From the NCBI GenBank assembly GCA_016208235.1, contig JACQYN010000118.1, positions 11,891 to 75,890 of the forward strand: 64,000 nt of DNA, read 5' to 3'. Both the position numbers and the translations under genes were made by a program. The stretch is from Deltaproteobacteria bacterium (lineage in GTDB: Bacteria > Desulfobacterota > Desulfobaccia > Desulfobaccales > 0-14-0-80-60-11). Below, in pieces: positions 5,373-50,830 of this stretch (positions are counted from its first letter, which is position 1; every line of letters begins with the position of its first letter). Under the pieces are notes generated by a model. That model had not been told where the DNA came from. It saw only the letters and a list, made by a program, of their open reading frames with translations, and searched no databases.

Positions 5373-5870
5373 ATGCGAAAAATGCTGGTTCCACTAATTT
5401 TGGCAGGTCTGGCCGCGCTGTGCCTCACCGCCTCCGCCCAAAAGTACCCGCCTCCCACCACTTCGGGCGGCTCGGGGGAGGCCCTCCTTAACCTGGACAA
5501 TACCGTAGCGGTGCACGGCTACGACCCCACGGCCTATTTCACCGACAAGCGCGCCATCAAGGGCAACCAGCGGATTAACGAAAGGGTGGGAAGCGCCACC
5601 TACTATTTCCATTCCCGGGCATCCCGCTACGAGTTCCTGAGTAATGCCCCACAATACCAGCCTCAGTTCGGCGGTTACTGCGCCACCTCCATGTCCTTCG
5701 GGCGCCTGGAGGACATTAACCCCCATATTTTCGCCGTGTACAACGGCAAACTTTATCTTTTCCGGGACCCGGAGGCCCAGGCGCGGTTCTGGGCCAACCC
5801 GGAGAGGATCATCCGGGACGCCACCTTCAACTATTTCGAGATGGCCAGGCAGAAACGCGAGAGGTATTGA
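5373..5870 (+). CDS. secreted YHS-domain-like protein
   Basis: Signal peptide (LAALCLTASA). GYDPTAYF..YYF..PQFGGYC pattern typical of YHS-type domains. Lies next to copA. Confidence 0.6.
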   Translation: MRKMLVPLILAGLAALCLTASAQKYPPPTTSGGSGEALLNLDNTVAVHGYDPTAYFTDKRAIKGNQRINERVGSATYYFHSRASRYEFLSNAPQYQPQFGGYCATSMSFGRLEDINPHIFAVYNGKLYLFRDPEAQARFWANPERIIRDATFNYFEMARQKRERY

Positions 5871-5944: not shown

Positions 5945-6490
5945 ATGACGAAAAAAGTTTTGGTCGCACTGGGGTTCGTGGCGGCAATCATCATCCTCTT
6001 GGTTTTCTACTTTTTTTACTCCGGAGCCCCGCCGTTTAAAGGCATGGAGAAACCGAAGACCCCCGAGGTAAAATCCCAGGCCGCCCCCGAGGTAAAGGAA
6101 AAGCCCACTCCTGCGCCCGCTTTACCGCCCTCCCCCGCTCCCCCAGAAAAACCCCAGCCCCAACCGGGTGCTCCTCCGGAAAAATCTTTAACCAAACCGG
6201 AGGCTGCTTCCCCGGCCCCTGAAAAAACCTTGCTGCCCCCCTTGGAACCTAAAAAAGAATCAGGGCTCCTGGCGGGTAGTTACCGAAGGTATGCCGATGC
6301 CGCCAAGATGATGGAAAAACTGAAAAAACAGGGCCAACCCGCGTTTATCCGCCGGGAAAAAGGGAAATATCAGGTGTGGGTGGGTCCTTTCTCCACCCCC
6401 GAAGAAGCCCAGGCGGCAGCCAAGGCGCTTAAAGGGAAAGCAAAAATTCCCTCAAAAATCCACCAAATCGAGACCCCGGTGCCCAAATAA
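5945..6490 (+). CDS. SPOR-domain membrane protein
   Basis: N-terminal TM helix, Pro/Glu/Lys-rich linker, and a C-terminal SPOR-like fold (GSYRRYADAAKMMEKLKKQGQPAFIRREKGKYQVWVGPFSTPEEAQAAAKAL). Confidence 0.75.
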   Translation: MTKKVLVALGFVAAIIILLVFYFFYSGAPPFKGMEKPKTPEVKSQAAPEVKEKPTPAPALPPSPAPPEKPQPQPGAPPEKSLTKPEAASPAPEKTLLPPLEPKKESGLLAGSYRRYADAAKMMEKLKKQGQPAFIRREKGKYQVWVGPFSTPEEAQAAAKALKGKAKIPSKIHQIETPVPK

Positions 6491-12063: not shown

Positions 12064-12140
12064 TCTCACGCAAAGACGCAAAGGCGCTAAAGATTTAATA
12101 TAATTATTGCGTCTTTGGGCCTTTGCGTCTTTGCGTGAGA
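12064..12140. repeat. hairpin with 8-nt periodic arms (CGCAAAGA)n
   Basis: tctcacgcaaagacgcaaaggcgc ... gcgtctttgggcctttgcgtctttgcgtgaga, between the S-component stop and the ATPase ORF. Confidence 0.9.
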
Positions 12141-12159
12141 ATTCAACGGAGAACCTACA

Positions 12160-13806
12160 ATAATCAGAATCACCGATCTCCATTTTAAGTATAAAAAAGC
12201 CGACCGGCCTGTCTTTTACGGGCTCAACCTGGAGGTTGCCCCAGGGGAGCGCCTCGCCATCCTGGGGCCCAGCGAGGCCGGCAAATCCACCCTGGCCCTC
12301 TGCCTGGGGGGCCTCATCCCCCGGATGATTAAAGGGGAATTTCGCGGGCAGGTGGAAGTGGCGGGCAGTCTCACTCACCTCTGCCGCCCCCGGGAGCTGG
12401 CCGACCGGGTGGGCCTTTTGTTCCAGGATTTCGAGGCCCAGCTCTTCTGCACCCGGGTGGACCAGGAGGTGGCCTTCGGGCCGGAAAACCTGGGGCTTAA
12501 CCGGACGGAACTACTCCGGCGGGTGCCCTGGGCCTTGGGCCGGGTGGGCCTGGAGGGGGTGGAAAATCGCGATCCCGCCACCCTCTCCGGGGGGCAGAAA
12601 CAACTCCTGGCCCTGGCCGGGGTCCTGGCCCTGGAACCCCGCATTCTGGTTCTGGATGAACCCACCACAGACCTCGATCCCCTGCGGGTGGAAGAACTTC
12701 TATCTGCCTTGGACTGCCTCAGCATGGATAAAAACCTTACCTTAATCCTGCTGGGCGCGGACCTGCGGCTGGCCCGGCATTGCTCCCGGATTGTCTTACT
12801 TAATCACGGGGGAGTGGCGGCCGACGGCCCCCGAGAGCAGGTGTTACGGAAGGTGGAGACCTTGCGCGGCCTGGGGCTGCGGCCCCCGGAACTGCCGGCC
12901 CTGTTCCACGACCTGGGGCAAACGGCCCTGCCCCTGACCCTGGAAGAGGCCGCGGTCCAGGCCCGGAGCCTGGGTTGGGAGTGTCCCGGGGCAGGAAGCC
13001 GGGAGCTTCCGGCCCCTCCCCTGCCCTCCCCGGCCCCGGAACTTCTGGCCCTGCGCCGGGTGACTTTCGCGTATCCGGATTCCTCCCCCATATTTCGGGA
13101 CTTTTCTTTCAGTTTGCGGGAAGGGGAGCTAACCGCGATTTTAGGCCCCAACGGCGGCGGCAAGACCACCCTGGTGAAGCTGCTCCGGGGCCTGCTCAAA
13201 CCTCAGGAGGGTGAGGCATGGTCCGCCCCGGGAGACCAACCTCTACGGGTGGGGTTTGTCTTCCAGAATCCCGATTATCAGTTATTTTCCGAGCAGGTCT
13301 GGGAAGAAGTGGCCTTTGGCCCCCGCCTCCTGGGGCTGGAACCGGAGGAAGTCAACCGCCGGGTGGAGCAGTCCCTGTCCCGGGTCCATCTCCTGGACCG
13401 GGCCGGGGAGGACCCCTTTTCCCTCACCAAGGGACAGCGCCAGCGACTGGCCGTGGCCGGGGTCCTGGCCCTCACCCCCCGGGTGATCATCCTGGATGAA
13501 CCCACCACCGGCCTGGACCACCGGGAGCAAGAAGACATGCTGGAGTTGATCCGGGAACTCCACGCCCAAGGCCACACCATCGTCATGGTCACCCACTCCA
13601 TGTGGGTTGCCGCCACTTATACCCAGCGGCTGGTGGTCCTGAACCGGGGCCGGATAGTCCTGGACGGCCCCACCCGGGAGGTCCTGGCCCAGGAAGAAAT
13701 TTTGTGTTCCTGCAACCTTAAGACCCCGGCGCTAGTGCAGCTCAGCCGGCGGTTGGGATTTATGGCCCTGACTCCGGAGGAGTTTCGCAACCACGTTTTG
13801 GGATAA
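12160..13806 (+). CDS. duplicated ABC ATPase (EcfA1-EcfA2-like fusion); start codon uncertain
   Basis: Two ABC cassettes: Walker A GPSEAGKST at ~12265-12291 and GPNGGGKTT; LSGGQKQ and LTKGQRQ signatures; LVLDEPT and IILDEPT Walker B. The first Walker A lies upstream of the first ATG (12325). The frame opens at 12139. GGAGA at 12148-12152 is followed by ATA/ATC at 12160/12163. Confidence 0.8.
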   Translation: MIRITDLHFKYKKADRPVFYGLNLEVAPGERLAILGPSEAGKSTLALCLGGLIPRMIKGEFRGQVEVAGSLTHLCRPRELADRVGLLFQDFEAQLFCTRVDQEVAFGPENLGLNRTELLRRVPWALGRVGLEGVENRDPATLSGGQKQLLALAGVLALEPRILVLDEPTTDLDPLRVEELLSALDCLSMDKNLTLILLGADLRLARHCSRIVLLNHGGVAADGPREQVLRKVETLRGLGLRPPELPALFHDLGQTALPLTLEEAAVQARSLGWECPGAGSRELPAPPLPSPAPELLALRRVTFAYPDSSPIFRDFSFSLREGELTAILGPNGGGKTTLVKLLRGLLKPQEGEAWSAPGDQPLRVGFVFQNPDYQLFSEQVWEEVAFGPRLLGLEPEEVNRRVEQSLSRVHLLDRAGEDPFSLTKGQRQRLAVAGVLALTPRVIILDEPTTGLDHREQEDMLELIRELHAQGHTIVMVTHSMWVAATYTQRLVVLNRGRIVLDGPTREVLAQEEILCSCNLKTPALVQLSRRLGFMALTPEEFRNHVLG

Positions 13807-13882
13807 GGGGTAGAAACCCCTTGGGCGTGCCGTGCACGCCGATTAATGGCGGCCACGGGCCGCCCTATGGCTGCTTGGAAAA

Positions 13883-14044
13883 GTTCCAAGTTCCCAGTTC
13901 CGTGTTCCAAGTTGAGACTTCTGCGAAAGTCTTTTAAGGTGTCATTCTGAACGGAGCGAAGCTTCGTTTCGAATCTCGTATTTGAGATTCTTCGGTCGCT
14001 TCGCTCCCTCAGAATGACAATTGATGAAGTTTCGCAGAAGTCTC
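13883..14044. repeat. composite nested palindrome, copy I-a
   Basis: GTTCCAA-type 7-mer array (13883-13913), GAGACTTCTGCGAAAG (13914-29) paired with TTTCGCAGAAGTCTC (14030-44), and the core GTCATTCTGA...TCAGAATGAC palindrome (13941-14018). Confidence 0.9.
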
Positions 14045-14282
14045 AAGTTAGGAATTAGCCATCAGGAACTTTTAATAATTTGCGGTAGGCCAACGGCCCA
14101 TGAATAATTGATCTGAAAAGTTGTACCCCGCACAGGCTGGAAAGCCTGTGCTACCGATACTTTTTATGGTTTATGGGTGAGCCTAAGGTCCATGAGGACC
14201 TGCCTTGATTTTTGATTTTTAAGCTGATGGCTGAAAGCTATTCGCCTTCTTTTTCATGGACCTTGACCGAACGGAGGCATCT

Positions 14283-15089
14283 ATGTGGGTAGCCGCAATT
14301 CAACTCAATTCCACCCCGGATATGGAGGGGAACCTGACTCGCGCCCGGTCCTTGATCGAGGAGGCCGCGTCCCGGGGCGCGCAGCTTATCGCCCTGCCGG
14401 AGCATTTTGCGTATCTGGGGCCGGAAGACAAAAAGCCGCCGTCCGCCCAGGCACTGGATGGGCCTCTGCTGAGTGAATTTCGGGAACTGGCCAGAAAATT
14501 GGGGGTCTTCCTGCTCCTCGGCTCCTTCCCGGAGCTTACCGCGGCCGGGGCCCGCCCCTTTAACACCAGCGTGCTCCTGGGACCCCAGGGAGACATTCTC
14601 GCGTCCTACCGCAAGATGCACCTCTTCGACGTGGATCTCGCCAAAGGGCCAAGATACCGGGAATCTCAATTTATTCAGGCCGGAGAAGAATTGGCCGTGG
14701 CCCCCCTTCCCGGCGCCCCCTTCACCGCGGGTCTGGCCATCTGCTACGACCTGCGCTTCCCGGAGCTTTTTCGGGCCCTGACGGCCCAAGGCGCGGATCT
14801 TCTGCTGTTGCCCGCGGCCTTCACCCTGGCCACCGGCCGGGACCACTGGGAGGTCCTGGTCCGGGCCCGAGCCATCGAAAACCTGGCTTACGTCATCGCC
14901 CCGGCCCAATGGGGCCAGCACTCCCCGGGCCGCCGCAGCTACGGCCGCTCCCTCATCATCGACCCCTGGGGCCTCATCCTGGCCCAGGCCCCGGACGGAG
15001 AAGGCATCATTTACGCCCGCCTGGACCACGATCGTTTGAACAGGCTGCGCCGGGAACTGCCTTGTTTGCACCATCGCCGATTGAAGTAA
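14283..15089 (+). CDS. carbon-nitrogen hydrolase (nitrilase/Nit family)
   Basis: Start at ATG 14283, after GGAGG at 14272-14276. Typical Nit pattern IALPE (catalytic Glu), YRKMHLFD (Lys), LAICYDLRFPE (Cys). Confidence 0.85.
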   Translation: MWVAAIQLNSTPDMEGNLTRARSLIEEAASRGAQLIALPEHFAYLGPEDKKPPSAQALDGPLLSEFRELARKLGVFLLLGSFPELTAAGARPFNTSVLLGPQGDILASYRKMHLFDVDLAKGPRYRESQFIQAGEELAVAPLPGAPFTAGLAICYDLRFPELFRALTAQGADLLLLPAAFTLATGRDHWEVLVRARAIENLAYVIAPAQWGQHSPGRRSYGRSLIIDPWGLILAQAPDGEGIIYARLDHDRLNRLRRELPCLHHRRLK

Positions 15090-15102
15090 GAGGTGGGTGG
15101 AA

Positions 15103-15373
15103 AGCTGTCAGCTATCAGCTATCAGCTGTCAGCTGTCAGCTTAATTGAAGAACTATTAGAGATTGGAGCTAAATCGAGTTCAGCTGAAGTTTTGGGGTCT
15201 GCCTTAATTTTTGATTTTATACCAAGTCGCAAACAAAAAACGCAGTATCGTAGGGGCGCACCCGTGTGTGCGCCCGAGTCCGGGGCGGACACATGGGTCC
15301 GCCCCTACAAGAAAATTGTCTTTTGTTTGCGACTTGGTATTAAAGCTGATGGCTGAAAGCTGATAGCTGAAAG
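15103..15373. repeat. composite nested palindrome, type II
   Basis: Outer (CAGCTRT)n arms at 15103-15141 / 15344-15373, enclosing the element at 15219-15340. Confidence 0.9.
15219..15340. mobile_element. 122-bp MITE-like palindromic insertion (ATACCAAG...CTTGGTAT)
   Basis: 20-bp perfect terminal inverted repeats (ataccaagtcgcaaacaaaa / ttttgtttgcgacttggtat) around a GTAGGGGCG...CGCCCCTAC double hairpin. An uninterrupted version of the flanks exists at 14201-14240. Confidence 0.65.
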
Positions 15374-15405
15374 TTAAGCAGCCTTTAGCCCCCTCCCCCA
15401 CCCCA

Positions 15406-15441
15406 ACAAAAAAAGGCGGAAGGAAAACCCTCCCGCCTTTT
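15406..15441 (-). terminator. rho-independent terminator after the sigma/dksA-like operon
   Basis: Stem GGCGGA/TCCCGCC (15415-15437). On the minus strand it is followed by a T7 run (plus-strand A-run 15408-15414). Lies 22 nt past the stop at 15463. Confidence 0.7.
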
Positions 15442-15462
15442 ATATTTCGGTGTTAGGCTGCG

Positions 15463-15816
15463 TTACCGGGACGTGGCTTTGGCCAGTTTTTCCCGAAGAG
15501 ACTGGCAGTTGCGGCACAAGGGGGTTTCGGGCATGATTTCCAGCCGCCGCGGCTCAATGGGCAGCCCGCAGTTTTCACATTGGCCGTAGCTGCCGTTTTC
15601 CAGCCTTTGCAGGGCTTCTTCGATGGCCTCCAGCTCCTGCCGTTTGGGTCCCAGAAGGGAGAGCTGGGTCTCCGCCAGGAGGCTGACCGAGGCCTGATCT
15701 TCCTCGTCCCGGGCGGTGGCCAGCATCTCCTGATAGCCGTCGCCGATACTGCTCTTCAGCTGTTGTTTCACTTCCAGCCAGAGGCGCTGTTTCCGGGACA
15801 GCAGCCGTTCTTTCAC
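15463..15816 (-). CDS. DksA/TraR-family C4 zinc-finger protein
   Basis: 117 aa. C-terminal CENCGLPIEPRRLEIMPETPLCRNC four-Cys finger after a coiled-coil region. GTG start overlaps the sigma stop (GTGA). Confidence 0.85.
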   Translation of the reverse strand: MKERLLSRKQRLWLEVKQQLKSSIGDGYQEMLATARDEEDQASVSLLAETQLSLLGPKRQELEAIEEALQRLENGSYGQCENCGLPIEPRRLEIMPETPLCRNCQSLREKLAKATSR

Positions 15817-17009
15817 TTCCGCCTGACGTCGATTTCCTCCAGGGTATGTTCCACTTCCTCCCCCACTCCGAAGCGCATCTTCATGATTTTCTCTTCCCGC
15901 TGGGTCAGGGTGGTGAGGATGGTGTCCGTCTTTTCCGTAAGCTGGGACTCCAGGATGGCCTCGTAAGGGGAGACCGCCTTGTCATTGCGGATGAAGTCTC
16001 CTAGCCGGTCCCCTTCGTCTCCCACCGGGGTTTCCAGGGAGATCAGCTCATCGGACAGATTGGTGACCATGAGGATTTTTTCCTCCGGCACCCCGGAACG
16101 CGCCGCGATCTCCTTGAGATTCGGTTCCCGGCCCAACTCTTTCAACAGGTCGTAAAAAGCCCGGTAGCAGCGGTTTCGGATCTCCTGCAGATGCACGGGG
16201 ATACGGATGGTCCGGGTCTTGTCGTAGATGGCCCGGGTGATGGTCTGCCGGATCCACCAGGACGCGAAGGTGCTCAGGCGGTAGCCGGTGGTATAGTCAT
16301 ACCGGGTTACGGCCTTCATCAGGCCCAGGTTGCCTTCCTGGATGAGGTCGGAGAAACTCAGGCCCCGGTGCAGGTATTTTTTGGCGATGCTCACCACCAG
16401 GCGCAGGTTCGCCTTGATCATCTGGTCCCGGGCCTGGGTGACTTCGTCTTCCATGGCCTGGATGCACCGCGCCAGTTCCTTGATATCCGCGGCCTCGGGA
16501 TAATGTCTCTCGAGCCAATGCAGCTTCTTATGGATATCCTTGAAAAGCTTCTCTTTGGCTTGGGCGCTCTTTTCCGGTGTCTGGAACCAGCCAAGAATCT
16601 TCTTTTGCAGGTAGCGGATCTCTTCCAGGTCGGAATCCACCATGGATACCAGTTTAAAGATGGTCTCCTGCCCTTCTTTGATGATGCGGCCCAGGTTCCG
16701 TTCTTCTTCCGGGGAAAGGATGGAATACCGCAGCATTTCCCGGAAATACGCGGCTACCAGGCCCTCATGTTCCGGAATTTCCTGGGCTTCCAGGCTCTCA
16801 TCCAGGTCTTCTTCCGCCTCTTCCCCGAGGACCAGGGCCGGGGTCAGGTCGCCTTCCAGGCCCTCCTCGGGTATAACCTCGTAGTTTTCCCGGTAATTTA
16901 GTGATTCATCCTCCTCTTCCGGAACGAAAAGATGAAACTGGTCATAGGGAATGATCTGGTCATTCCCCCCGCCAAGGTTGATGATCTTTTTAAAGTATTC
17001 TTTTTCCAT
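15813..17009 (-). CDS. sigma-70 family RNA polymerase sigma factor (C-terminally short)
   Basis: Region 2 (ANLRLVVSIAKKY..GLSFSDLIQEGNLGLMKAVTRYDY..GYRLSTFASWWIRQ), region 3 and region 4.1 (LTQREEKIMKMRFG) are present. The ORF ends at TLEEIDVRRK, before the expected 4.2 recognition helix. Confidence 0.85.
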   Translation of the reverse strand: MEKEYFKKIINLGGGNDQIIPYDQFHLFVPEEEDESLNYRENYEVIPEEGLEGDLTPALVLGEEAEEDLDESLEAQEIPEHEGLVAAYFREMLRYSILSPEEERNLGRIIKEGQETIFKLVSMVDSDLEEIRYLQKKILGWFQTPEKSAQAKEKLFKDIHKKLHWLERHYPEAADIKELARCIQAMEDEVTQARDQMIKANLRLVVSIAKKYLHRGLSFSDLIQEGNLGLMKAVTRYDYTTGYRLSTFASWWIRQTITRAIYDKTRTIRIPVHLQEIRNRCYRAFYDLLKELGREPNLKEIAARSGVPEEKILMVTNLSDELISLETPVGDEGDRLGDFIRNDKAVSPYEAILESQLTEKTDTILTTLTQREEKIMKMRFGVGEEVEHTLEEIDVRRK

Positions 17010-17261
17010 GAATTTGGGTCCTGTGGCCCCCTGCCACTGTTTAAATTTAAACGTTTATTTTAACTTCTTATAGAGTCATGTCAAGGAAAAAAGTTAATTT
17101 TTATTTATTAACTTTCGACTCTGCGACGTTTATATCGGCATTTTTTCTAATAATTTAAATATAATTACACCTTGTACCCTTGTCAAGACAGCTTAGAACA
17201 ACTCTTGACCCCCTTCCCCGGCCGCGAGTATCATGGCACCAGCCATTTGGAGGGAGAAGCC

Positions 17262-18278
17262 ATGCCCCACCGTTTCCTTACCGACCTGCAGGAAGGGGAT
17301 GCCATCCACCAGTTCTTGCTGGTGCGCCGGGTGGAGACCCGCATCGATAAATCCGGTAAGCCCTACCTGGCCCTGGTCTTAGGCGATCGCAGCCGCGACC
17401 TCGAAGCCCGGGTCTGGAGCGACGTCTTAGCCAAATGCCCCGGACCCTTCACACCCGGCGATTACGTGGGTGTGCAGGCCCAAGTGAGCAGTTACAAGGG
17501 CGAGATTCAGCTAAGCGTCCAATATATCAGTACCGTGGAGGCCTTGCGGGAGCGGGGCCGGGAACTCAAAGAGTTCGACCCGGAGCTGCTGCACCGGGCC
17601 ACTCCCTATGACCGTGAGCAATTGTGGCGGGAGCTGTGGGAGTTGGCGGAGGCCCACCTGAAGACGCCCTTAAAGGAGTTGGTGCTGGGCTTGCTGGGAA
17701 AATATCAGGAGGAACTGCTGGTCTGCCCCGCGGCCCGGGTCTATCATCACCCCTATCTGGGAGGCCTGCTGGAGCACACCTGGTCCGTAGCCCGCCATGC
17801 CCTCCAGTCTCTAAGCGTCTATCAGGACCTGCATCCGGACCTGGTCCTGGCCGGGGCCATCCTCCACGATCTGGGCAAAGTCAAAGAACTGGCCAATCCC
17901 CAGGCGCCGGACATCACCGTGGCCGGCGCGCTCCTGGGCCACATCGTCCTGGGCTGGGAAATGGTGCGGGAGGAAGCCCGGGCCCAAAACTTCCCTGACC
18001 CCGCCTTGCTCCTGGAACTGGAGCACATCATTCTCTCCCACCACGGTAGTCAGGAGTTCGGCTCACCGGTCCCCCCCAAAACCCGGGAGGCGATGCTCGT
18101 TTTTTATCTGGACGACCTGGACGCCAAACTGAAGATGATGGACATGCACCTGGAGAGCGATAACACCGCGGGGGATTTCACTAGCTATCACCGGGTCTTG
18201 CAGCGCGGGCTGTATAAAGGGGGAGATCGGTCCGAGGAAGAACCCGCTCCAACCCCGGAATCAAAAAAAAATAACTAA
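17262..18278 (+). CDS. OB-fold plus HD-domain phosphohydrolase (YhaM-like 3'-5' exoribonuclease family)
   Basis: Start at ATG 17262 after GGAGGGA. N-terminal OB fold (KSGKPYLALVLGDRSRDLEARVW). HD motifs HHPYLGGLLEH and ILHDLGK. Confidence 0.8.
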   Translation: MPHRFLTDLQEGDAIHQFLLVRRVETRIDKSGKPYLALVLGDRSRDLEARVWSDVLAKCPGPFTPGDYVGVQAQVSSYKGEIQLSVQYISTVEALRERGRELKEFDPELLHRATPYDREQLWRELWELAEAHLKTPLKELVLGLLGKYQEELLVCPAARVYHHPYLGGLLEHTWSVARHALQSLSVYQDLHPDLVLAGAILHDLGKVKELANPQAPDITVAGALLGHIVLGWEMVREEARAQNFPDPALLLELEHIILSHHGSQEFGSPVPPKTREAMLVFYLDDLDAKLKMMDMHLESDNTAGDFTSYHRVLQRGLYKGGDRSEEEPAPTPESKKNN

Positions 18279-18419
18279 GAATGATTATCTTATAAGAATT
18301 CTCCTCATGTGAACTTGACATCCCCCAAGTCTATTCTTAGCTTAATTCTCAGGTAAAGGCGAGGCTGCAGCGGCAGGGTAGTCCTGGCCAGCGCAAGTTA
18401 TCCTTCAAAGGAGGGCAAC

Positions 18420-18899
18420 ATGTTTAATAAGATTTTGGTTCCGTTGGATGGTTCTGAACTGGCTGCTAAGGTCCTCCCCAAAGTTACAGAGATGGCCAAG
18501 ACCTTCAAAGCCCAGGTTACTCTGATTCATGTCTGCTACACTCCCGCCATCGGCGAAACCACGCCAGAGACCATGAAAGCCGCGGCAGCCCACGAAGAGA
18601 AGTGGTGCGCCACCTTCCTCGGGAAGGTTGCCGGCGATCTTAAGGCCCAAGGATTGGACGTCAAGACCGAATGCGTCGAAGGAGTGCCGGCCCGGGAGAT
18701 CATCCACTATGCCGACAAAAACAACATGGACCTCATTGCCATGACTACCCATGGCATCGGCGAAGTGGCCTGGGTCTTGGGCAGTACCGCGGAAAAAGTG
18801 GTTTCCCATGCCACGGTGCCGGTGCTGCTGTTCAGGGTTATTGAATTCAAGCCTCCCTTGCTGAAAGAAGTTTATTACACCACACCCGGCGTAGGTTAA
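18420..18899 (+). CDS. universal stress protein
   Basis: MFNKILVPLDGSELA N-terminus and C-terminal GSTAEKVVSHATVPVLL motif typical of UspA. Confidence 0.9.
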   Translation: MFNKILVPLDGSELAAKVLPKVTEMAKTFKAQVTLIHVCYTPAIGETTPETMKAAAAHEEKWCATFLGKVAGDLKAQGLDVKTECVEGVPAREIIHYADKNNMDLIAMTTHGIGEVAWVLGSTAEKVVSHATVPVLLFRVIEFKPPLLKEVYYTTPGVG

Positions 18900-18935
18900 T
18901 ACTTCTGCGCAATTTACCCAGACCTGAATAATAAC

Positions 18936-18975
18936 GGGGGACCACCGGTCAAGCCCAGGGGGTCCCCCTTTGTTT
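18936..18975 (+). terminator. rho-independent terminator after the usp gene
   Basis: GGGGGACC ... GGTCCCCC stem followed by TTTGTTT. Confidence 0.65.
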
Positions 18976-19068
18976 ATTCAAAAAGCATTTTCCAGGAGGG
19001 GCCCAGAGGCTACCCCAGGTGAGACGCGTGTGCCACTGGCCCCTCGCACACCAATCTTTTCCACAATT

Positions 19069-20484
19069 TTAAGGCCGCAGCGCCAGAAGGCGGAGTTCCG
19101 TGAGTTCCTCGACGGCGTAACGCACCCCTTCCCGGCCCAGCCCCGAGTCCTTGACCCCGCCGTAGGGCATGCTGTCCACCCTAAAGACCGGGCCGTCGTT
19201 GATGATCACCCCCCCCACCTCCAGGGTCTCGAAGGCCTGCCAGGCGTGGGCCAGGTTGTTGGTGAAGACCCCGGCCTGGAGCCCGTAACTGGAGTCGTTG
19301 GCCAGCTCCAGGGCCTGGGCAAAATCCCGGCAGGGGGTGAGGGTCGCCACCGGCCCGAAGATTTCCCGGTTCCAGACCTTCATCTCCCGGGAGACGTTTT
19401 CGAGCACGGTGGGGGGCATGAGGTTCCCTTCTCCCAGGCCGCCGGCGGCCAGTGTCGCGCCTTCGTCCAGGGCCTCTTGGACCCAGGCCCGGACCCGGGC
19501 TGCGGCCCCGGGCTCCACCAAGGGGCCTACCACCGTGTCTTCTAAGGCCGGGGCCCCGGCTTTGATCTCCCGGGATACGGTTTCCAGGAAGATTTTCTTA
19601 AACTCCTCGTACACCTCCTCCACCACCAACAGGCGCTGCACCGCGATGCACACCTGGCCCGCGTGGGCAAAAGAGCCGATCGCGGCCCGATTCGCGGCCA
19701 ACTGCAGGTCGGCCCCCGCGTCCATGATGCACGCGGCATTGCCCCCCAGCTCCAGGATGACTCGCTTTTTTCCGGCCACGTTTTTCAGGTACCAGCCCAC
19801 CGCGGCGCTGCCGGTGAAAGACAAAGCCCGGAGGCGGTCGTCGGCCACGGCCCGCTCTGCCACTGCCGCAGTGCTGGGAAGGACCTGCAGGCCGCCGGGG
19901 GGCAGGCCCGCCTGGTCGTAGATCTCCGCCAGCAGCAGCGCGGTGAGGGGCGTCTTGGACGCGGGTTTGATGATAATGGGGTTGCCCGCGGCCAGGGCCG
20001 GGCCTACCTTGTGGGCCACCAGGTTGAAGGGGAAATTGAAGGGGGTAATCCCTAGGACCGGCCCTATGGGAAAGCGCCGGGTGAGGCCCCAGCGGCCTTT
20101 GAACGCGGCCTGCACATCCAGGGGGATCACTTCCCCGCCGATCCTCTCCGCCTCTTCCGCGGCCAGGGAAAGGGTCATCACCCCCCGGGCCATCTCCGCC
20201 CGGGCGTAGGTGATGGGTTTGCCGCCTTCGGCCATAATGGTCTGGGCCAGCTCCTCCTGGCGGGCCTTGACTCCGGCCACCAGCTTTTCCAGGATTTGGC
20301 GGCGCTCCAGGCTGGAGAATTTGCGCATCACTACCGCGGCCTCCTGGGCTGCAGTGATGGCCGTTTCCCACTCCGCGCCCCCGGCCAGGCAGACCTCCCC
20401 CACCACTTCCCCGGACCAGGGGGAGAGGACAGGGAGGCTGTCTTTGGTTTCCACCCAACGGCCAGTGATGAAACAGCCTTTCAT
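19069..20484 (-). CDS. NAD(P)-dependent aldehyde dehydrogenase
   Basis: Start trimmed to ATG 20484 (MKGCFITGRW); the track extension MSLRLCVRKKGG is repeat-derived. ALDH motifs FTGS, ELGGNA and catalytic-Cys region GQVCIA. Confidence 0.9.
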   Translation of the reverse strand: MKGCFITGRWVETKDSLPVLSPWSGEVVGEVCLAGGAEWETAITAAQEAAVVMRKFSSLERRQILEKLVAGVKARQEELAQTIMAEGGKPITYARAEMARGVMTLSLAAEEAERIGGEVIPLDVQAAFKGRWGLTRRFPIGPVLGITPFNFPFNLVAHKVGPALAAGNPIIIKPASKTPLTALLLAEIYDQAGLPPGGLQVLPSTAAVAERAVADDRLRALSFTGSAAVGWYLKNVAGKKRVILELGGNAACIMDAGADLQLAANRAAIGSFAHAGQVCIAVQRLLVVEEVYEEFKKIFLETVSREIKAGAPALEDTVVGPLVEPGAAARVRAWVQEALDEGATLAAGGLGEGNLMPPTVLENVSREMKVWNREIFGPVATLTPCRDFAQALELANDSSYGLQAGVFTNNLAHAWQAFETLEVGGVIINDGPVFRVDSMPYGGVKDSGLGREGVRYAVEELTELRLLALRP

Positions 20485-20502
20485 CGTATCCCCCCCTTTT
20501 TT

Positions 20503-20575
20503 TCTCACGCAAAGACGCAAAGACACAAAGAAAATAAATGCTTTGCGCCTTTGCGCCTTGGCGTCTTTGCGTGAG
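20503..20575. repeat. hairpin with 8-nt periodic arms (CGCAAAGA)n, second copy
   Basis: tctcacgcaaagacgcaaagacacaaag ... ctttgcgcctttgcgccttggcgtctttgcgtgag. Abuts the aconitase stop (20576-78) and lies 19 nt before the ALDH start. Confidence 0.9.
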
Positions 20576-22501
20576 CTATCCTTTCTTTGCCATATTCAGC
20601 GCCCCGCCCACGGCCAGCATCCGCCGCTGCCGCGCTGAGAGGTCCAGCCGCACCCAGATTTGGTGGCCATCCACTTTCAGGGGCAGGCGCTCCGCGCCGT
20701 CCAGGAGAAGTTTGCGCACCCCGGGAAGTTCCAGGGTTTTACCCAGATCCAGGATGTCGTAGTCAGCCGGGTTTTCAAAAGTTAAGGGCAGGATGCCGAA
20801 GTTGATGAGATTCGCCAGGTGGATACGGGCGAAGCTCTTCACCAGTTTCACCCGCACTCCCAGGTACCGGGGGGCCAGGGCCGCGTGTTCCCTGGAAGAG
20901 CCTTGCCCATAATTCTCGCCCCCAACGATGGCCCCTTCCCCCCGCCCCTGGACCCGGTCCGGGAAATCCCGGTCCAGCCGGGTGAAGGCAAAGCGGCTGA
21001 TGGCCGGGAGATTGCTCCTAAGCGGCAAAATCTGGCTGCCCGCGGGCAGAATGTCGTCGGTGGTGACGTTGTCCCCGGTTTTCAGCCAGACTTCACCGCA
21101 CCAGGAATCCGGCAGGCCGGACAGCCTGGGAAAGGCCACGATATTGGGGCCCCGGATCACTTCCGCCTTCCGGCTCTCCTCCGCCGGCAACGGGGCCATC
21201 AGGCTGCGGCCGTTCACCAGGAAATAGCGGGGCGGGGCCACTCGCGGATAATCCCCCAGGTTCCGGGGGTCCATAATTTCACCGGAAATAGCCGCAGCCA
21301 CCGCGGTCTCGGGGCTGGCCAGATAGACCTGATCGTCCTTGGTGCCGCTTCTGGCGGGAAAATTACGGGTGAAGGTGCGCACGCTCACCGCGCCGGTGGC
21401 CGGGGCCTGGCCCATACCGATGCAGCCCCAGCAGCCCGGAGGCATCACCCGCACCCCGGCTTTCAGGAGCGTCAGCAGCCCCCCGGAGAGGTCCAGGTTT
21501 TCCAATACTTGCAGAGATCCAGGATTTATTTCCATGCTCACCCGGGGATGCACCCGGCGGTCTTGCAAGGCCCGGGCAATGACCATCAGGTCCCGGAAGG
21601 AAGAGTTGGCGCAGGAGCCGATGAGCACCTGGTCCACCGGGGTACCCTCAGCTTCCTTAACCGGCACCACGTGGTCCGGAGAGCCCGGGGTGGCAATGAG
21701 GGGCGAAAGCTCGCCCAGGGCAATTTCCTCCACCTGGGCATAGCGGGGCCGCCCCTGGGCCTTAAGGGGCCGGTAATCTTCGGCCCGTCCCTGGAGCGCC
21801 AGAAAGCACTGCGTCTGGGCGTCCGCGGGAAAGATGGAGGTGGTGGCCCCCAGTTCCGTCCCCATGTTGGTGATGGAGGCCCGCTCCGGCACCGCCAGAT
21901 GGCGCAAAGCCGGGCCGAAAAACTCCAGGATCTTCCCCCGCCCCCCCTTCACCGTCAGGCGCCGGAGCAACTCCAAAATCACATCCTTGGCCGACACCCA
22001 GGGCTGGAACCGCCCCTCCAGCCGAACGCCGATGACCTCCGGCATTACCAAATAAAAGGGCTGCCCGGCCATGGCCAGGGCCACGTCCAGACCCCCGGCC
22101 CCGAAGGAGAGCATGCCCGCGCCCCCCGCAGTGGGGGTGTGGCTGTCCGAGCCGATCAAAGTCTTTCCCGGAATACCAAAACGCTCCAGGTGCACCTGGT
22201 GGCAGATGCCGTTGCCCGGGGGCGAGAAATACAGGCCATACTTAGCGGCAATGGTCTTCAAGAACCGGTGGTCGTCGGCATTGCGGTAATCCGTCTGCAA
22301 CAGATTGTGATCCACATAACTCACCGACAACTCGGTCTTGACCCGCTCCACCCCCATGGCCTCAAACTCCAGGTAGGCCAGGGTGCCGGTGGCGTCCTGG
22401 GTCAAAGTCTGATCAATCTTCAAGGCCACCTCCGCGCCCGGAACCAACTCCCCGGACACCAGGTGCGCGGCCATGATTTGTTCCACGATGGTCTTTGCCA
22501 T
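20576..22501 (-). CDS. aconitate hydratase (short ~640-aa aconitase family)
   Basis: 641 aa. IDQTLTQDATG, GSDSHT, cluster-ligand regions GSCANSS and CWGCIGMG, and C-terminal swivel domain GENYGQGSSREHAA. Confidence 0.9.
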   Translation of the reverse strand: MAKTIVEQIMAAHLVSGELVPGAEVALKIDQTLTQDATGTLAYLEFEAMGVERVKTELSVSYVDHNLLQTDYRNADDHRFLKTIAAKYGLYFSPPGNGICHQVHLERFGIPGKTLIGSDSHTPTAGGAGMLSFGAGGLDVALAMAGQPFYLVMPEVIGVRLEGRFQPWVSAKDVILELLRRLTVKGGRGKILEFFGPALRHLAVPERASITNMGTELGATTSIFPADAQTQCFLALQGRAEDYRPLKAQGRPRYAQVEEIALGELSPLIATPGSPDHVVPVKEAEGTPVDQVLIGSCANSSFRDLMVIARALQDRRVHPRVSMEINPGSLQVLENLDLSGGLLTLLKAGVRVMPPGCWGCIGMGQAPATGAVSVRTFTRNFPARSGTKDDQVYLASPETAVAAAISGEIMDPRNLGDYPRVAPPRYFLVNGRSLMAPLPAEESRKAEVIRGPNIVAFPRLSGLPDSWCGEVWLKTGDNVTTDDILPAGSQILPLRSNLPAISRFAFTRLDRDFPDRVQGRGEGAIVGGENYGQGSSREHAALAPRYLGVRVKLVKSFARIHLANLINFGILPLTFENPADYDILDLGKTLELPGVRKLLLDGAERLPLKVDGHQIWVRLDLSARQRRMLAVGGALNMAKKG

Positions 22502-22538
22502 AACTTATCCCTTCGGAAAATTTGATGTTGGATTTTTA

Positions 22539-22725
22539 AGTGGTCAGTGGCCAGTGGTCAGTTAGAGAGCTCTGAAAAAGTCTTGTCTGTCATCCTGAGC
22601 GAAGCGAAAGATCTCGTATTTGAGAGATTCTTCGGTCGCTCCGCTCCCTCAGAATGACATAAAAGACCAATTTTACAGAGGTCTCAGTCTTTTTTCTGGC
22701 CACTGGCCACTGACCACTGACCACT
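22539..22725. repeat. composite nested palindrome, copy I-b
   Basis: (CAGTGGY)n arms at 22539-22562 / 22696-22725, degenerate GAGAGCTCTGAAAAAG layer, and core GTCATCCTGA...TCAGAATGAC (22589-22658). The right arm overlaps the 3' end of CDS 22684..25395. Confidence 0.9.
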
Positions 22726-25395
22726 ACCTTTCAGCCTCAAAACCTCCTCCCGCAGACCCAGGGTGACGGCGTTAATCTCCGACGCGCCCGGGTCCACCTG
22801 CAGTCCCCGCGCTTTCAGCTCCTCCCAGGAATGCTCCCGGCCGAAAACTACCTGGATAGGATGGGAGCGGGGCAGGGTCGCGCCGGCAGGCCAGGCTTCG
22901 TAGGAGCCTTGAATATAGACCGGCACCAATTTCACCCCCAGTTCTTTGGCCAGGATGGCCGCGCCCTTCTTGAACCGGCCCACCTCTCCGGAAGGGCTCC
23001 GGGCGCCTTCGGGAAAGACGCAGAGCAACTGGCCGTTTCTGAGAATATAAGACGCCACCTGCATGGCCGCCACCACGTTCCGGGACGAGTCCACCGGGAT
23101 GACCCGGATGAGCTTGCTAAGATTCCGGACTACGGGAATATCGAAATACCGGCTGTATCCCATGGAAAAGAGGCGGTCCCGCAACGGCCCCGGCACCGCA
23201 TAAGCAATGAGAAACCCATCCAGGAAACTGGCGTGGTTGGGGCAGATCACATATCCTTGCTTCTGTAGCCTCTCTCCGCCATAGACCTGGAGGTTGAACA
23301 TCCATTTAAACCAACGGCCCAATACTGTCGATAGCCCCTGGGTGGCCATCCGGGCCGCGAGCCCCCCTTCGATGCCCAGGCGCTGGAGTAAGTCCGGCGG
23401 CGGATCAGTCCGGAGAATGGTGTCCCAGGCCGCGATTTCTTCTTCAGGCTCCTTGGCGGCTTCCGGTTTTTTCTCTTCGATAAAGTTGATGAGCTCTCTG
23501 ACCGTGAAGATCCCGGTAAATTCTTCATCCCTGATCTTGAGCTGGAACCGGCTTTCCAGGGCCGCGAGCAGTTGCACCAGGCCCAGGGAGTCCATACCTA
23601 AGTCCAGCTCCAGATGGTCGTCCAGGGAGATGCGGGAGTCTCCAATTTGCCGGGCCAAAACTTCCACCACCATCTCGCCCACGGGAGACAGCCCTTCTTC
23701 TATGGCCGGCTTTTTCTTTTCGTAACGTTGGCCGGCCCGCTCCTGGTAAAGCCGCTGGGCCTCGTGGATCTTGACTTTTCCCAAGCGGGTCTTGGGGAGT
23801 TCTTCGTTTATCAGGATAAAATCCCGCACTCGCTTGTAAGGCTCCAGGCCCTGGGACAACAGTTCCAGATCCCACTTCACCTTCCCGTAAATGTCCGTTT
23901 CTCCGATTTTCCGGAAAAAGTCCAGGTCCGGCACCACCACCGCGGCCAGTTTCTCGGCCTTGGCGTCCGCGGTCACGAAGATTTCTTTGATGGAAGGAGC
24001 CTTCAGGTAGTAATGCCCCACTTCCTCGGCGGAGACGTTCTTGCCCGAACTGAGGACGATGATCTCCTTGATCCGTCCCTGGATGAACAGATAGCCTTCC
24101 CGGTCGAGATACCCCAGATCGCCGCTGTGAAACCAGCCGTCTTTCAGGACCTCCCGGGTGGCGGCCTCATTGCGGTAATACCCGGCCATGACATTGTCAC
24201 CCCGGATGAGGACCTCGCCCACCCCGTCCGCAGCGGGGTTGAGAATCCTGACTTCCACCCCCTCCAGGGGCCGGCCCGCGGACCCCAGGCGGGGAGCCTC
24301 CGGCGAGTTCATGGTGACCACCGGCGCGGTCTCCGTTAAGCCGTAGCCTTCCAGGACCGTGAATCCCAGGCGCGCAAAACCCTCTGCCAAGACTTCCGGC
24401 AGCTTGGCCCCACCGCTGACAAAAAACCGGAACTGCTCCCCCAGGGCGCTGTGGAATCGCCGCAGCAGCGGCTGCGCGGGATTTACCCCCAAAAACCGCG
24501 AAATCTTCCAGGAAATATTGAGAAACCCCAGCAACAGGGGCCGCACCGGCCAGGGGATTTTGTCTATCTGCCTCTGGATGCCGTTATAAAAAAGCTGGAG
24601 CACCTGGGGGGTGACCGCCATGATGGTCACCTGCTGCTCCTTGATGCACCTCAGGATGGCGTCGGGCTTCAAGGTGTCCAGATAAGTGATCTGCAGTTGC
24701 AAGAAAAGCGGCGTGAGAAGGGTGGCGGTAAAAGAAAAAGAATGGGACAAGGGCAGGATGGAGAGAAAGTTGTCCCCCGGCCGGGTGGCGTTGAGCCGGG
24801 TAATGCCCAGGTAATTGGCGCAGAAATTTTTATGGGTGAGCATCACCCCTTTGGGAACCCCGGTGGTGCCGGAGGTATAAATGATGGAAGCCAGGTCGTG
24901 GGGATGGGCCTCAGGCAGAGGTCTGCGACTTGCCTTCGTCTCCAGCAACACCGGGAAACCTACGGTTTTCTCCCCGGCTTTCCCCCCCTCGCCGACGACC
25001 ACGATCTTTTCCAGGAAAGACGCCTCCCGCAATTGGGAGAGAGGGGCCTTGGGAAAGGTGAAGATGATCCGGGCCTGGGTCTCCTGCAGAACATGGTCCA
25101 GGAAGTCCCAGCGGGAGACCGGGTCCAGGGGCACGGCCACCGCGCCCGCCAAGAGCAGCCCGAAGTAGCAGATGCTCCATTCAGGGCGGTTTTCCAGGAG
25201 GATGACTCCCCGGTCGCCTTTTTTCACCCCCTGGGCCCGGAGCCAACGGGCCACGGCCAGGCTGTCCCGGTAAAGCCGGCCGTAGGTGTACTCATGCACC
25301 ATTTCCCCTTCCCGGAAGAGAATGGCCGTTTGGTCGGCAGCTTCTGAGGCCACCCGGGCTAGTTGACCCGTCAAAGTTTCCGCTGCGTCTTCCAT
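22684..25395 (-). CDS. tri-domain fusion: acyl-AMP/CoA ligase, acyl carrier domain, PlsC-type acyltransferase
   Basis: Start trimmed to ATG 25395 (MEDAAETL). AMP-binding YTSGTTGVPKG. PP-binding LDLGMDSLGLVQL. Acyltransferase HX4D motif PNHASFLDG plus FPEGARS. Confidence 0.85.
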   Translation of the reverse strand: MEDAAETLTGQLARVASEAADQTAILFREGEMVHEYTYGRLYRDSLAVARWLRAQGVKKGDRGVILLENRPEWSICYFGLLLAGAVAVPLDPVSRWDFLDHVLQETQARIIFTFPKAPLSQLREASFLEKIVVVGEGGKAGEKTVGFPVLLETKASRRPLPEAHPHDLASIIYTSGTTGVPKGVMLTHKNFCANYLGITRLNATRPGDNFLSILPLSHSFSFTATLLTPLFLQLQITYLDTLKPDAILRCIKEQQVTIMAVTPQVLQLFYNGIQRQIDKIPWPVRPLLLGFLNISWKISRFLGVNPAQPLLRRFHSALGEQFRFFVSGGAKLPEVLAEGFARLGFTVLEGYGLTETAPVVTMNSPEAPRLGSAGRPLEGVEVRILNPAADGVGEVLIRGDNVMAGYYRNEAATREVLKDGWFHSGDLGYLDREGYLFIQGRIKEIIVLSSGKNVSAEEVGHYYLKAPSIKEIFVTADAKAEKLAAVVVPDLDFFRKIGETDIYGKVKWDLELLSQGLEPYKRVRDFILINEELPKTRLGKVKIHEAQRLYQERAGQRYEKKKPAIEEGLSPVGEMVVEVLARQIGDSRISLDDHLELDLGMDSLGLVQLLAALESRFQLKIRDEEFTGIFTVRELINFIEEKKPEAAKEPEEEIAAWDTILRTDPPPDLLQRLGIEGGLAARMATQGLSTVLGRWFKWMFNLQVYGGERLQKQGYVICPNHASFLDGFLIAYAVPGPLRDRLFSMGYSRYFDIPVVRNLSKLIRVIPVDSSRNVVAAMQVASYILRNGQLLCVFPEGARSPSGEVGRFKKGAAILAKELGVKLVPVYIQGSYEAWPAGATLPRSHPIQVVFGREHSWEELKARGLQVDPGASEINAVTLGLREEVLRLKGSGQWSVASGQKKD

Positions 25396-50720: not shown

Positions 50721-50830
50721 ATACCAAGAAATTGTAGGGGCGGACCCGCGTGTCCGCCCTTGGGTGGGCGCACACACATGGGTGCGCCCCTACAACAGAT
50801 AATTCTAGTTTTTTGACGGCAACTTGGTAT
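50721..50830. mobile_element. second copy of the ATACCAAG...CTTGGTAT element, flanked by a 19-bp direct repeat
   Basis: Core tgtaggggcggacccgcgtgtccgccc..gggcgcacacacatgggtgcgcccctaca. Flanks tacaatatcaaactattgc (50700-18) and tacaatatcaaactactgc (50831-49). Confidence 0.6.

Follow-up and report, generated by a model that had tools for sequence, protein, structure and literature searches.

Sigma factors that lack the -35 recognition helix have been described as engineered truncations of E. coli sigma70, namely the proteins comprising residues 1-529 and 1-553 ('delta 4.2'; Kumar et al. 1993 in PMC7948647). In PMC7948647, delta 4.2 sigma70 is described as having little or no activity at -10/-35 promoters and lowered activity at extended -10 promoters, and as initiating poorly de novo. 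For DksA-like proteins, a C4 zinc finger and a DxxDxA tip motif are the functional hallmarks (PMC4010833). Members of both families lie side by side in a 64,000-nucleotide stretch of DNA from a Deltaproteobacteria bacterium of the Desulfobaccales (assembly GCA_016208235.1, contig JACQYN010000118.1, positions 11,891 to 75,890; the whole stretch is hereafter called the window), where a sigma-70 family open reading frame (ORF) stops inside region 4 and its TGA overlaps the GTG of a DksA/TraR zinc-finger ORF. An earlier note on this DNA had proposed a naturally truncated, -35-blind sigma factor coupled to the zinc-finger protein. Comparison with other assemblies of the same species showed that the window lacks 187 bp spanning the end of the sigma gene and the beginning of dksA. 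We are confident that the window shows a private lesion, counting assembly artefact and young deletion together, rather than an arrangement shaped by evolution. An ordinary sigma-70 family gene and a DksA/TraR family gene are present here in damaged form, with nothing new of the kind proposed, and the claim of a new sigma architecture does not stand.

The window ORF resembles the engineered sigma70 truncations in having regions 1-3 (and 4.1) without the -35 recognition helix. It differs from them in being cut later, in carrying five foreign residues and in being an ORF of another protein that is known from sequence alone, where the E. coli proteins are laboratory constructs. The intact form of this sigma, described below, aligns nearly end to end with Thermus SigA (residues 47-429 against 43-423 of 423), its best PDB matches are RpoD/SigA proteins, and the residues reading the -10 element (WWIRQTITR) and the -35 element (SRERIRQ) are conserved. 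In contrast to primary and group-2 sigmas, it falls below the NCBIfam RpoD cut-offs, Pfam region 1.1 was not detected in it and its gene does not adjoin dnaG. The DksA-like protein of the locus has the C4 zinc finger and DxxDxA motif in common with secondary-channel proteins of the DksA/TraR family such as E. coli DksA and R. sphaeroides RSP2654. Compared with E. coli DksA, the Desulfobaccales protein is shorter (128 versus 151 aa) and its binding to RNA polymerase is putative; it also fails to reach the NCBIfam cut-offs for DksA and YteA (66-71 bits versus 105 and 134).

The sigma and DksA/TraR reading frames of the window

The sigma ORF occupies 15813-17009 on the minus strand, comprises 398 codons and ends in ...LTQREEKIMKMRFGVGEEVEHTLEEIDVRRK (HTLEEIDVRRK). 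Pfam finds regions 1.2, 2 and 3 complete, as the earlier note had read them, and each above its cut-off (Sigma70_r1_2 25.3, r2 73 and r3 58.7 bits). Sigma70_r4 is matched at profile positions 2-26 of 50 only (25.0 bits), compared with positions 2-50 (69.7 bits) on the intact conspecific allele, and the NCBIfam RpoD models end on the window sigma at positions 594 of 631 and 203 of 238. The ORF indeed stops inside region 4, after DVRRK and before the recognition helix of region 4.2; because of the 187-bp loss alone it does not hold a complete region 4 with the 4.2 helix-turn-helix. The missing segment amounts to 36 residues, more than the approximately 25 estimated before. By our numbering, with which the ranges of the structure matches agree, the cut would fall after the equivalent of E. 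coli sigma70 V576, within helix 1 of the 4.2 helix-turn-helix, and the window sigma would be without the equivalents of sigma70 residues 577-613. The recognition-helix residues R584, E585, R588 and Q589 presumably correspond to R401, E402, R405 and Q406 of the intact allele, and we assume that the recognition helix, the activator-contact patch and the C-terminal beta-flap contacts are lost together with region 4.2.

It had been observed that none of the downstream frames encodes the missing helix, and the same held for the whole 64-kb window, in which searches for the region 4.2 tail by tblastn (36 aa) and blastn (187 bp) returned chance matches only. No second sigma-70 gene was found within the window. 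The exclusion of a simple frameshift was likewise correct, since the lesion is a 187-bp loss. With regard to family, the window sigma scores below the RpoD equivalog cut-offs (PRK05658, 324.9 versus 555 bits; TIGR02393, 255.2 versus 354), and so does the intact orthologue P0001 (392.9 and 311 bits against the same two cut-offs). Judged by these profile scores, the family is RpoD-like and not an RpoD equivalog. A literature search on Desulfobacca and RpoD found nothing.

The DksA/TraR ORF comprises 117 codons at 15463-15816 on the minus strand, and the coordinates of the two ORFs agree with the reported GTGA overlap between the sigma TGA and the DksA/TraR GTG. Its C4 zinc finger (zf-dskA_traR, PF01258, CxxC-N17-CxxC) covers all of profile positions 1-36 of 36 at 44.5 bits against a cut-off of 24.9, and the DxxDxA tip motif is retained as DEEDQA. 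Among 71 DksA orthologues, the C4 pattern is present in 68 and DEEDQA in 70. The protein had been called normal-looking, but it is 11 residues short of the 128-aa orthologues, which start with MAGLSTERQAE, and the overlapping GTG is the codon for Val-12 of the intact DksA. The codon aligned with this GTG varies among the 71 orthologues (GTA in 31, GTG in 18, TTG in 6, and GTT, GTC, ATC, ATT, TTA, CTG or CTA in 16 together), being start-capable in 24 and non-start in 47; the GTG is therefore not a conserved start. The nearest run resembling a Shine-Dalgarno (SD) sequence, AGGCGG, ends 2 nt before the GTG, and a good one, GGAGGA, lies 18 nt away. In the orthologues a spacer of 53-57 nt, an SD and an ATG 11 codons upstream of the GTG position are found in place of the stop/start overlap. 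Because the overlap is conserved nowhere, the two ORFs do not qualify as an evolved overlapping pair. With the true SD and ATG lost and the GTG internal in the orthologues, the 4-nt overlap is an accident of the new reading frame.

The 117-aa product is annotated by NCBI as MBI4795793.1 on a contig of 76,188 nt, and the 187-bp gap therefore stands in the public record. No match was obtained when the 398-aa sigma, the 117-aa DksA and an 87-aa DksA remnant were looked up by exact sequence, and the truncated products were found nowhere else.

Intact alleles and orthologous loci

Exact look-up of the neighbouring Usp protein yielded contig JACQWS010000057.1 and a Logan contig. JACQWS010000057.1 belongs to Deltaproteobacteria bacterium NC_groundwater_1495_Pr4_B-0.1um_58_3 (GCA_016209115.1), matches window positions 12842-24922 with 99.0-99.7% nucleotide identity over 12.3 kb and holds an extra 187 bp, and thus carries an intact conspecific allele. 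Gene order is the same in both (ABC ATPase, CN hydrolase, dksA, sigma, HD/OB-fold gene, Usp, aldehyde dehydrogenase, aconitase). The intact sigma, MBI4642656.1, has 429 aa, of which residues 1-393 are 100% identical to the window ORF; the intact TraR/DksA protein, MBI4642655.1, has 128 aa, of which residues 12-128 are 100% identical to the 117 of the window. What the conspecific allele has and the window does not are sigma residues 394-429 with the 4.2 recognition helix and the C-terminal tail, the stop codon, a 57-nt SD spacer and the 5' end of dksA. The suggestion that the sigma 3' end had been replaced by the dksA-like gene came close, in that the sigma 3' end is lost, but the missing 187 bp also take away the spacer and the dksA 5' end.

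Two Logan run assemblies are intact as well, with flanks that are 98.5-100% identical to the window: SRR12113406 matches it at 584 of 585 nt to the left of the junction and 517 of 517 to the right, and SRR12113400 at 768 of 780 and 539 of 539 nt. One assembly of the species out of four thus carries the lesion. Looking up the CN hydrolase of the window yielded no further conspecific contigs. The striking truncation in a single metagenome-assembled genome (MAG) is explained through same-species assemblies that hold the missing 187 bp.

These assemblies also differ from the window at other places. Within the sigma gene, at codons of about 120-165 (window 16424-16610), where the sequence between regions 1.2 and 2 is not conserved, two Logan contigs diverge from the window: L088 (positions 1-223) has no detectable match there and L089 (2-90) has 12 clustered mismatches, which suggests that co-existing strain variants interrupt assembly within the sigma gene. 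JACQWS010000057.1 carries, relative to window position 17574, a duplication-type insertion of 51 nt in the HD-domain gene, an insertion found in neither the window nor the Logan contig L086, and relative to position 24460 a frame-breaking gap of 23 nt in a gene that has 939 codons in the window. Both are probably scaffold-join errors of that assembly.

The lost 187 bp consist of 110 nt of the sigma gene, the 57-nt spacer and the first 20 nt of dksA. The sigma part comprises 2 nt of codon 394, codons 395-429 and the stop; the spacer carries the SD GGGGAGGA; and the dksA part comprises codons 1-6 and 2 nt of codon 7. At the junction the window reads ...GGAGGAAATCG|ACGTCAGGCGG..., and past it, where the intact dksA encodes ...E R Q A E V K..., the sigma frame reads D V R R K and stop. 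No microhomology (0 nt) was found at the breakpoints in comparison with the 99%-identical allele, and the junction, searched for as a degenerate 31-nt pattern, had no match among JGI metagenome contigs. An exact 8-mer repeat, GGGGAGGA, has one copy 34 nt upstream of each breakpoint, the two copies being spaced in register with the 187-bp loss (positions 5799-5806 and 5986-5993 of the intact allele L087, about 15857-15864 in the window; 12 of 15 nt match when extended). Resampling gave p of approximately 0.004 for this repeat, a post hoc value, and the repeat leaves the junction sequence unexplained.

A scan of one genome per GTDB species recovered 75 orthologous Desulfobaccales loci, to which four metagenome loci were added; 76 of the total have a complete 3' end. 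The full sigma tail is present in all 76, which include 72 distinct GTDB species. A dksA-like gene lies just downstream in 75, and the exception ends at a contig edge. The two flanks that are joined in the window (0 nt apart) are separated by 173-194 nt in 64 loci. On the four metagenome contigs, a sigma of 429-432 aa is followed by a 53-57 nt SD spacer and then by a 128-aa DksA-like gene starting with MAGLS.... The best 120 protein matches to the sigma measure 427-437 aa, and matches at 78-92% identity continue after ...HTLEEI with G(R/K) and 34 further residues. The proposal of a natural, -35-blind sigma coupled to the zinc-finger protein is at odds with these loci and with the three conspecific assemblies, which have a full region 4.2 and a separate, SD-led dksA. 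Neither the truncation nor the 4-nt overlap, whose conservation in orthologous sigma-dksA pairs had been put forward as the check, is conserved anywhere; instead, as the earlier note itself had foreseen for the contrary case, the orthologues have a full-length region 4.2 and the window differs by a recent lesion. More distant sigma homologues (47-50% identity; L080-L084, from Desulfarculales and others) possess region 4.2 but have no dksA neighbour.

The strictly conserved pairing of an RpoD-like sigma of about 430 aa with a DxxDxA DksA-like protein suggests a dedicated partnership between a sigma and a secondary-channel factor. No specific report of a sigma-dksA operon came up in a literature search. 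The sigma-dksA unit is always divergent from the HD/OB-fold gene (L001-L079). In three MAGs (L070, L078 and L079, two of them long-read MFD MAGs) the sigma copy is frameshifted, and in L070 and L079 dksA is too, with matches split over several frames. These frameshifts are probably sequencing errors, and lesions in sigma and dksA would thus arise as MAG artefacts.

Where at least 97% of the orthologues agree at a column, the codons kept in the window have no private change. Pairwise ratios of nonsynonymous to synonymous substitution rates (dN/dS) against the nearest other species are 0.07-0.12 (about 0.09) for sigma and 0.05-0.12 for dksA, equal to those of control pairs. From this absence of decay the lesion would be either young or not real. 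Together, the intact allele in the same species, the loss of a conserved segment and the lack of later decay mark the locus as the remnant left by a recent deletion or by an assembly gap.

Origin of the 187-bp gap

In its normal layout, the unit consists of a predicted promoter, the 429-aa RpoD-like sigma, the 57-nt spacer with its GGGGAGGA SD, the 128-aa DksA-like protein and a predicted terminator. In one public MAG scaffold, 187 bp are lost from this unit, so that sigma codon 393 plus 1 nt is joined to the last base of dksA codon 7; the truncated sigma, the DVRRK ending, the TGA and the GTGA overlap are mechanical by-products of the join. On balance, we think that the gap arose during assembly or scaffolding, in which case the cells would keep an intact operon. 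A disabling deletion in a gene that all related species keep should rarely become the consensus of a natural population, and assembly errors are blind to gene importance. We infer an artefact from the zero microhomology, the singleton status of the lesion, the join-type errors of the sister MAG NC_groundwater_1495_Pr4, which has 3x coverage, and the use of IDBA-UD, with which the project behind the conspecific MAG scaffolded its MEGAHIT contigs (PMC7906910).

Several points weigh against an artefact. The window contains no Ns, including at the join, has 87% long-ORF coverage and, over 2.9 kb adjoining the locus, aligns gaplessly with an independent Logan contig, so that the assembly is not poor in general. 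Since a de Bruijn contig crosses a junction only where reads cover it, a clean, N-free join could reflect real molecules. That the window scaffold itself came from MEGAHIT and IDBA-UD is suggested by its MBI accession series and by 99-100% identity to material of the project. The balance between artefact and deletion would also shift if the sigma were the primary one, for which the evidence is mixed: it is RpoD/SigA-like, but below the cut-offs, without a detected region 1.1 and without a dnaG neighbour.

The possibility that comes next is a genuine and very young 187-bp deletion in a strain or sub-population of this groundwater Desulfobaccales species, giving a loss-of-function allele; we hold it to be a serious candidate, if less probable than not. 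The junction is clean and lies inside a contiguous, otherwise consistent 64-kb sequence, and the undecayed codons fit a very recent event, with a neutral period shorter than a few per cent of the path (dS 0.45) to the nearest other species. The NCBI annotation includes the 117-aa DksA but no 398-aa sigma on record, which would fit a pseudogene flag. Since engineered sigma70 without region 4.2 fails at -10/-35 promoters and works only weakly at extended -10 promoters (PMC7948647), the truncated sigma, if made at all, would be a null or strong hypomorph. The dksA of such an allele, deprived of SD, ATG and 11 codons, could be weakly translated via reinitiation at the internal GTG. However, the lesion is a singleton opposed by three intact conspecific assemblies, zero microhomology at the breakpoints is unusual among spontaneous deletions, and selection should remove a disabling deletion, given that all related species examined keep the pair intact; the deletion would be lethal if this sigma is the primary one.

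We consider it very unlikely that selection keeps a functional -35-blind sigma of regions 1.2-4.1, serving extended -10 type promoters and coupled through GTGA to the DksA-like factor. Some extended -10 activity is ascribed to sigma70 without region 4.2 where PMC7948647 cites Kumar et al. 1993, and a GTG overlapping an upstream stop could in principle permit reinitiation. Purifying selection on what remains of both ORFs equals that in relatives, but a young lesion predicts this likewise. Against such a function, the arrangement occurs in none of the 76 orthologous loci and none of the three conspecific assemblies, nor was its junction matched in the JGI metagenome contigs; the GTG corresponds to an internal Val, Leu or Ile codon in the orthologues, with the AGGCGG run 2 nt and the good GGAGGA 18 nt away from it in the window; and domain 4, cut in the middle of the first helix of the helix-turn-helix, probably would not fold. 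There is similarly little chance that, from a real and persisting deletion, the 398-aa sigma binds core RNA polymerase and acts independently of the -35 element or as a dominant negative, with a shortened DksA made by reinitiation at the GTG. Least credible, to the point of near exclusion, is an old pseudogene in a lineage that dispenses with this sigma, or a sequencing frameshift or programmed recoding that would yield the full sigma or a sigma-DksA fusion. Frameshifted copies do exist in the three MAGs mentioned above, but no frameshift can restore region 4.2, since no frame here and no other part of the window contains its coding sequence, the lesion is not an indel of 1-2 nt, and the identity of residues 1-393 to the intact allele together with the low dN/dS excludes long neutral decay. 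Whether the gap is an assembly artefact, as we prefer, or a young deletion, annotation and regulon inference should handle the sigma locus of this scaffold as either a pseudogene or an assembly gap.

Features of the locus and neighbouring elements

The features of the sigma-dksA locus in the window are collected in Table 1. The stem of the terminator-like hairpin contains 7 G-C pairs, and TTTGTTGGGG follows its T-rich 3' arm.

Table 1. Positions of the junction, coding remnants and predicted signals of the sigma-dksA locus in the window
Feature	Position	Strand	Basis
Intrinsic-terminator-like hairpin and T-run closing the sigma-dksA unit	15411..15441	-	14-pair stem
dksA remnant (without SD, ATG and first 20 nt); longest ORF from GTG at 15816, 117 aa	15463..15829	-	Pfam; allele identity
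Out-of-frame tail of the sigma ORF (DVRRK and TGA)	15813..15829	-	DNA equals dksA codons 7-13 in the intact allele
Deletion junction, 187 bp of relatives absent	between 15829 and 15830	-	Comparison with intact alleles
Sigma codons 1-393 (regions 1.2, 2, 3, 4.1 and first half of the first 4.2 helix-turn-helix helix)	15831..17009	-	Pfam; identity to MBI4642656.1
Promoter-like site 2 upstream of sigma (TTGACA-16-TAAAAT)	17057..17084	-	Consensus match alone, 11/12
Promoter-like site 1 upstream of sigma (TTGACA-17-TATATT)	17158..17186	-	Consensus match alone, 11/12

Between the dksA terminator and the CN-hydrolase gene, at 15105-15373, lies a block of about 270 bp with nested inverted repeats that resembles a miniature inverted-repeat transposable element. 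Its outer arms measure 31 nt (AGCTGTCAGCT-type) and its inner arms 27 nt, around a central 26-nt palindrome (GTAGGGGCGCACCCGTGTGTGCGCCC/GGGCGGACACATGGGTCCGCCCCTAC); a second copy of the central hairpin is located at 50734-50793. Another palindromic intergenic element, with CACGCAAAGACGCAAAGGC arms, has copies at 12067-12137 and 20506-20573, just upstream of the ABC ATPase and aldehyde dehydrogenase genes, respectively. Matches to the CACGCAAAGACGCAAAGGC arm number 5, where 0.01 would be expected by chance.

A second lesion was considered in the double ABC ATPase gene, which is listed as 493 aa against a 556-aa orthologue, and was rejected, as the frame is open and only a canonical start is lacking. 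On the plus strand, 12139-13803 forms an open frame of 555 codons that takes in the first Walker A motif (GPSEAGKST), and the shorter length is listed because no ATG, GTG or TTG occurs upstream of that motif. The gene probably uses a non-canonical start in an ATA/ATC/ATT region at about 12160.

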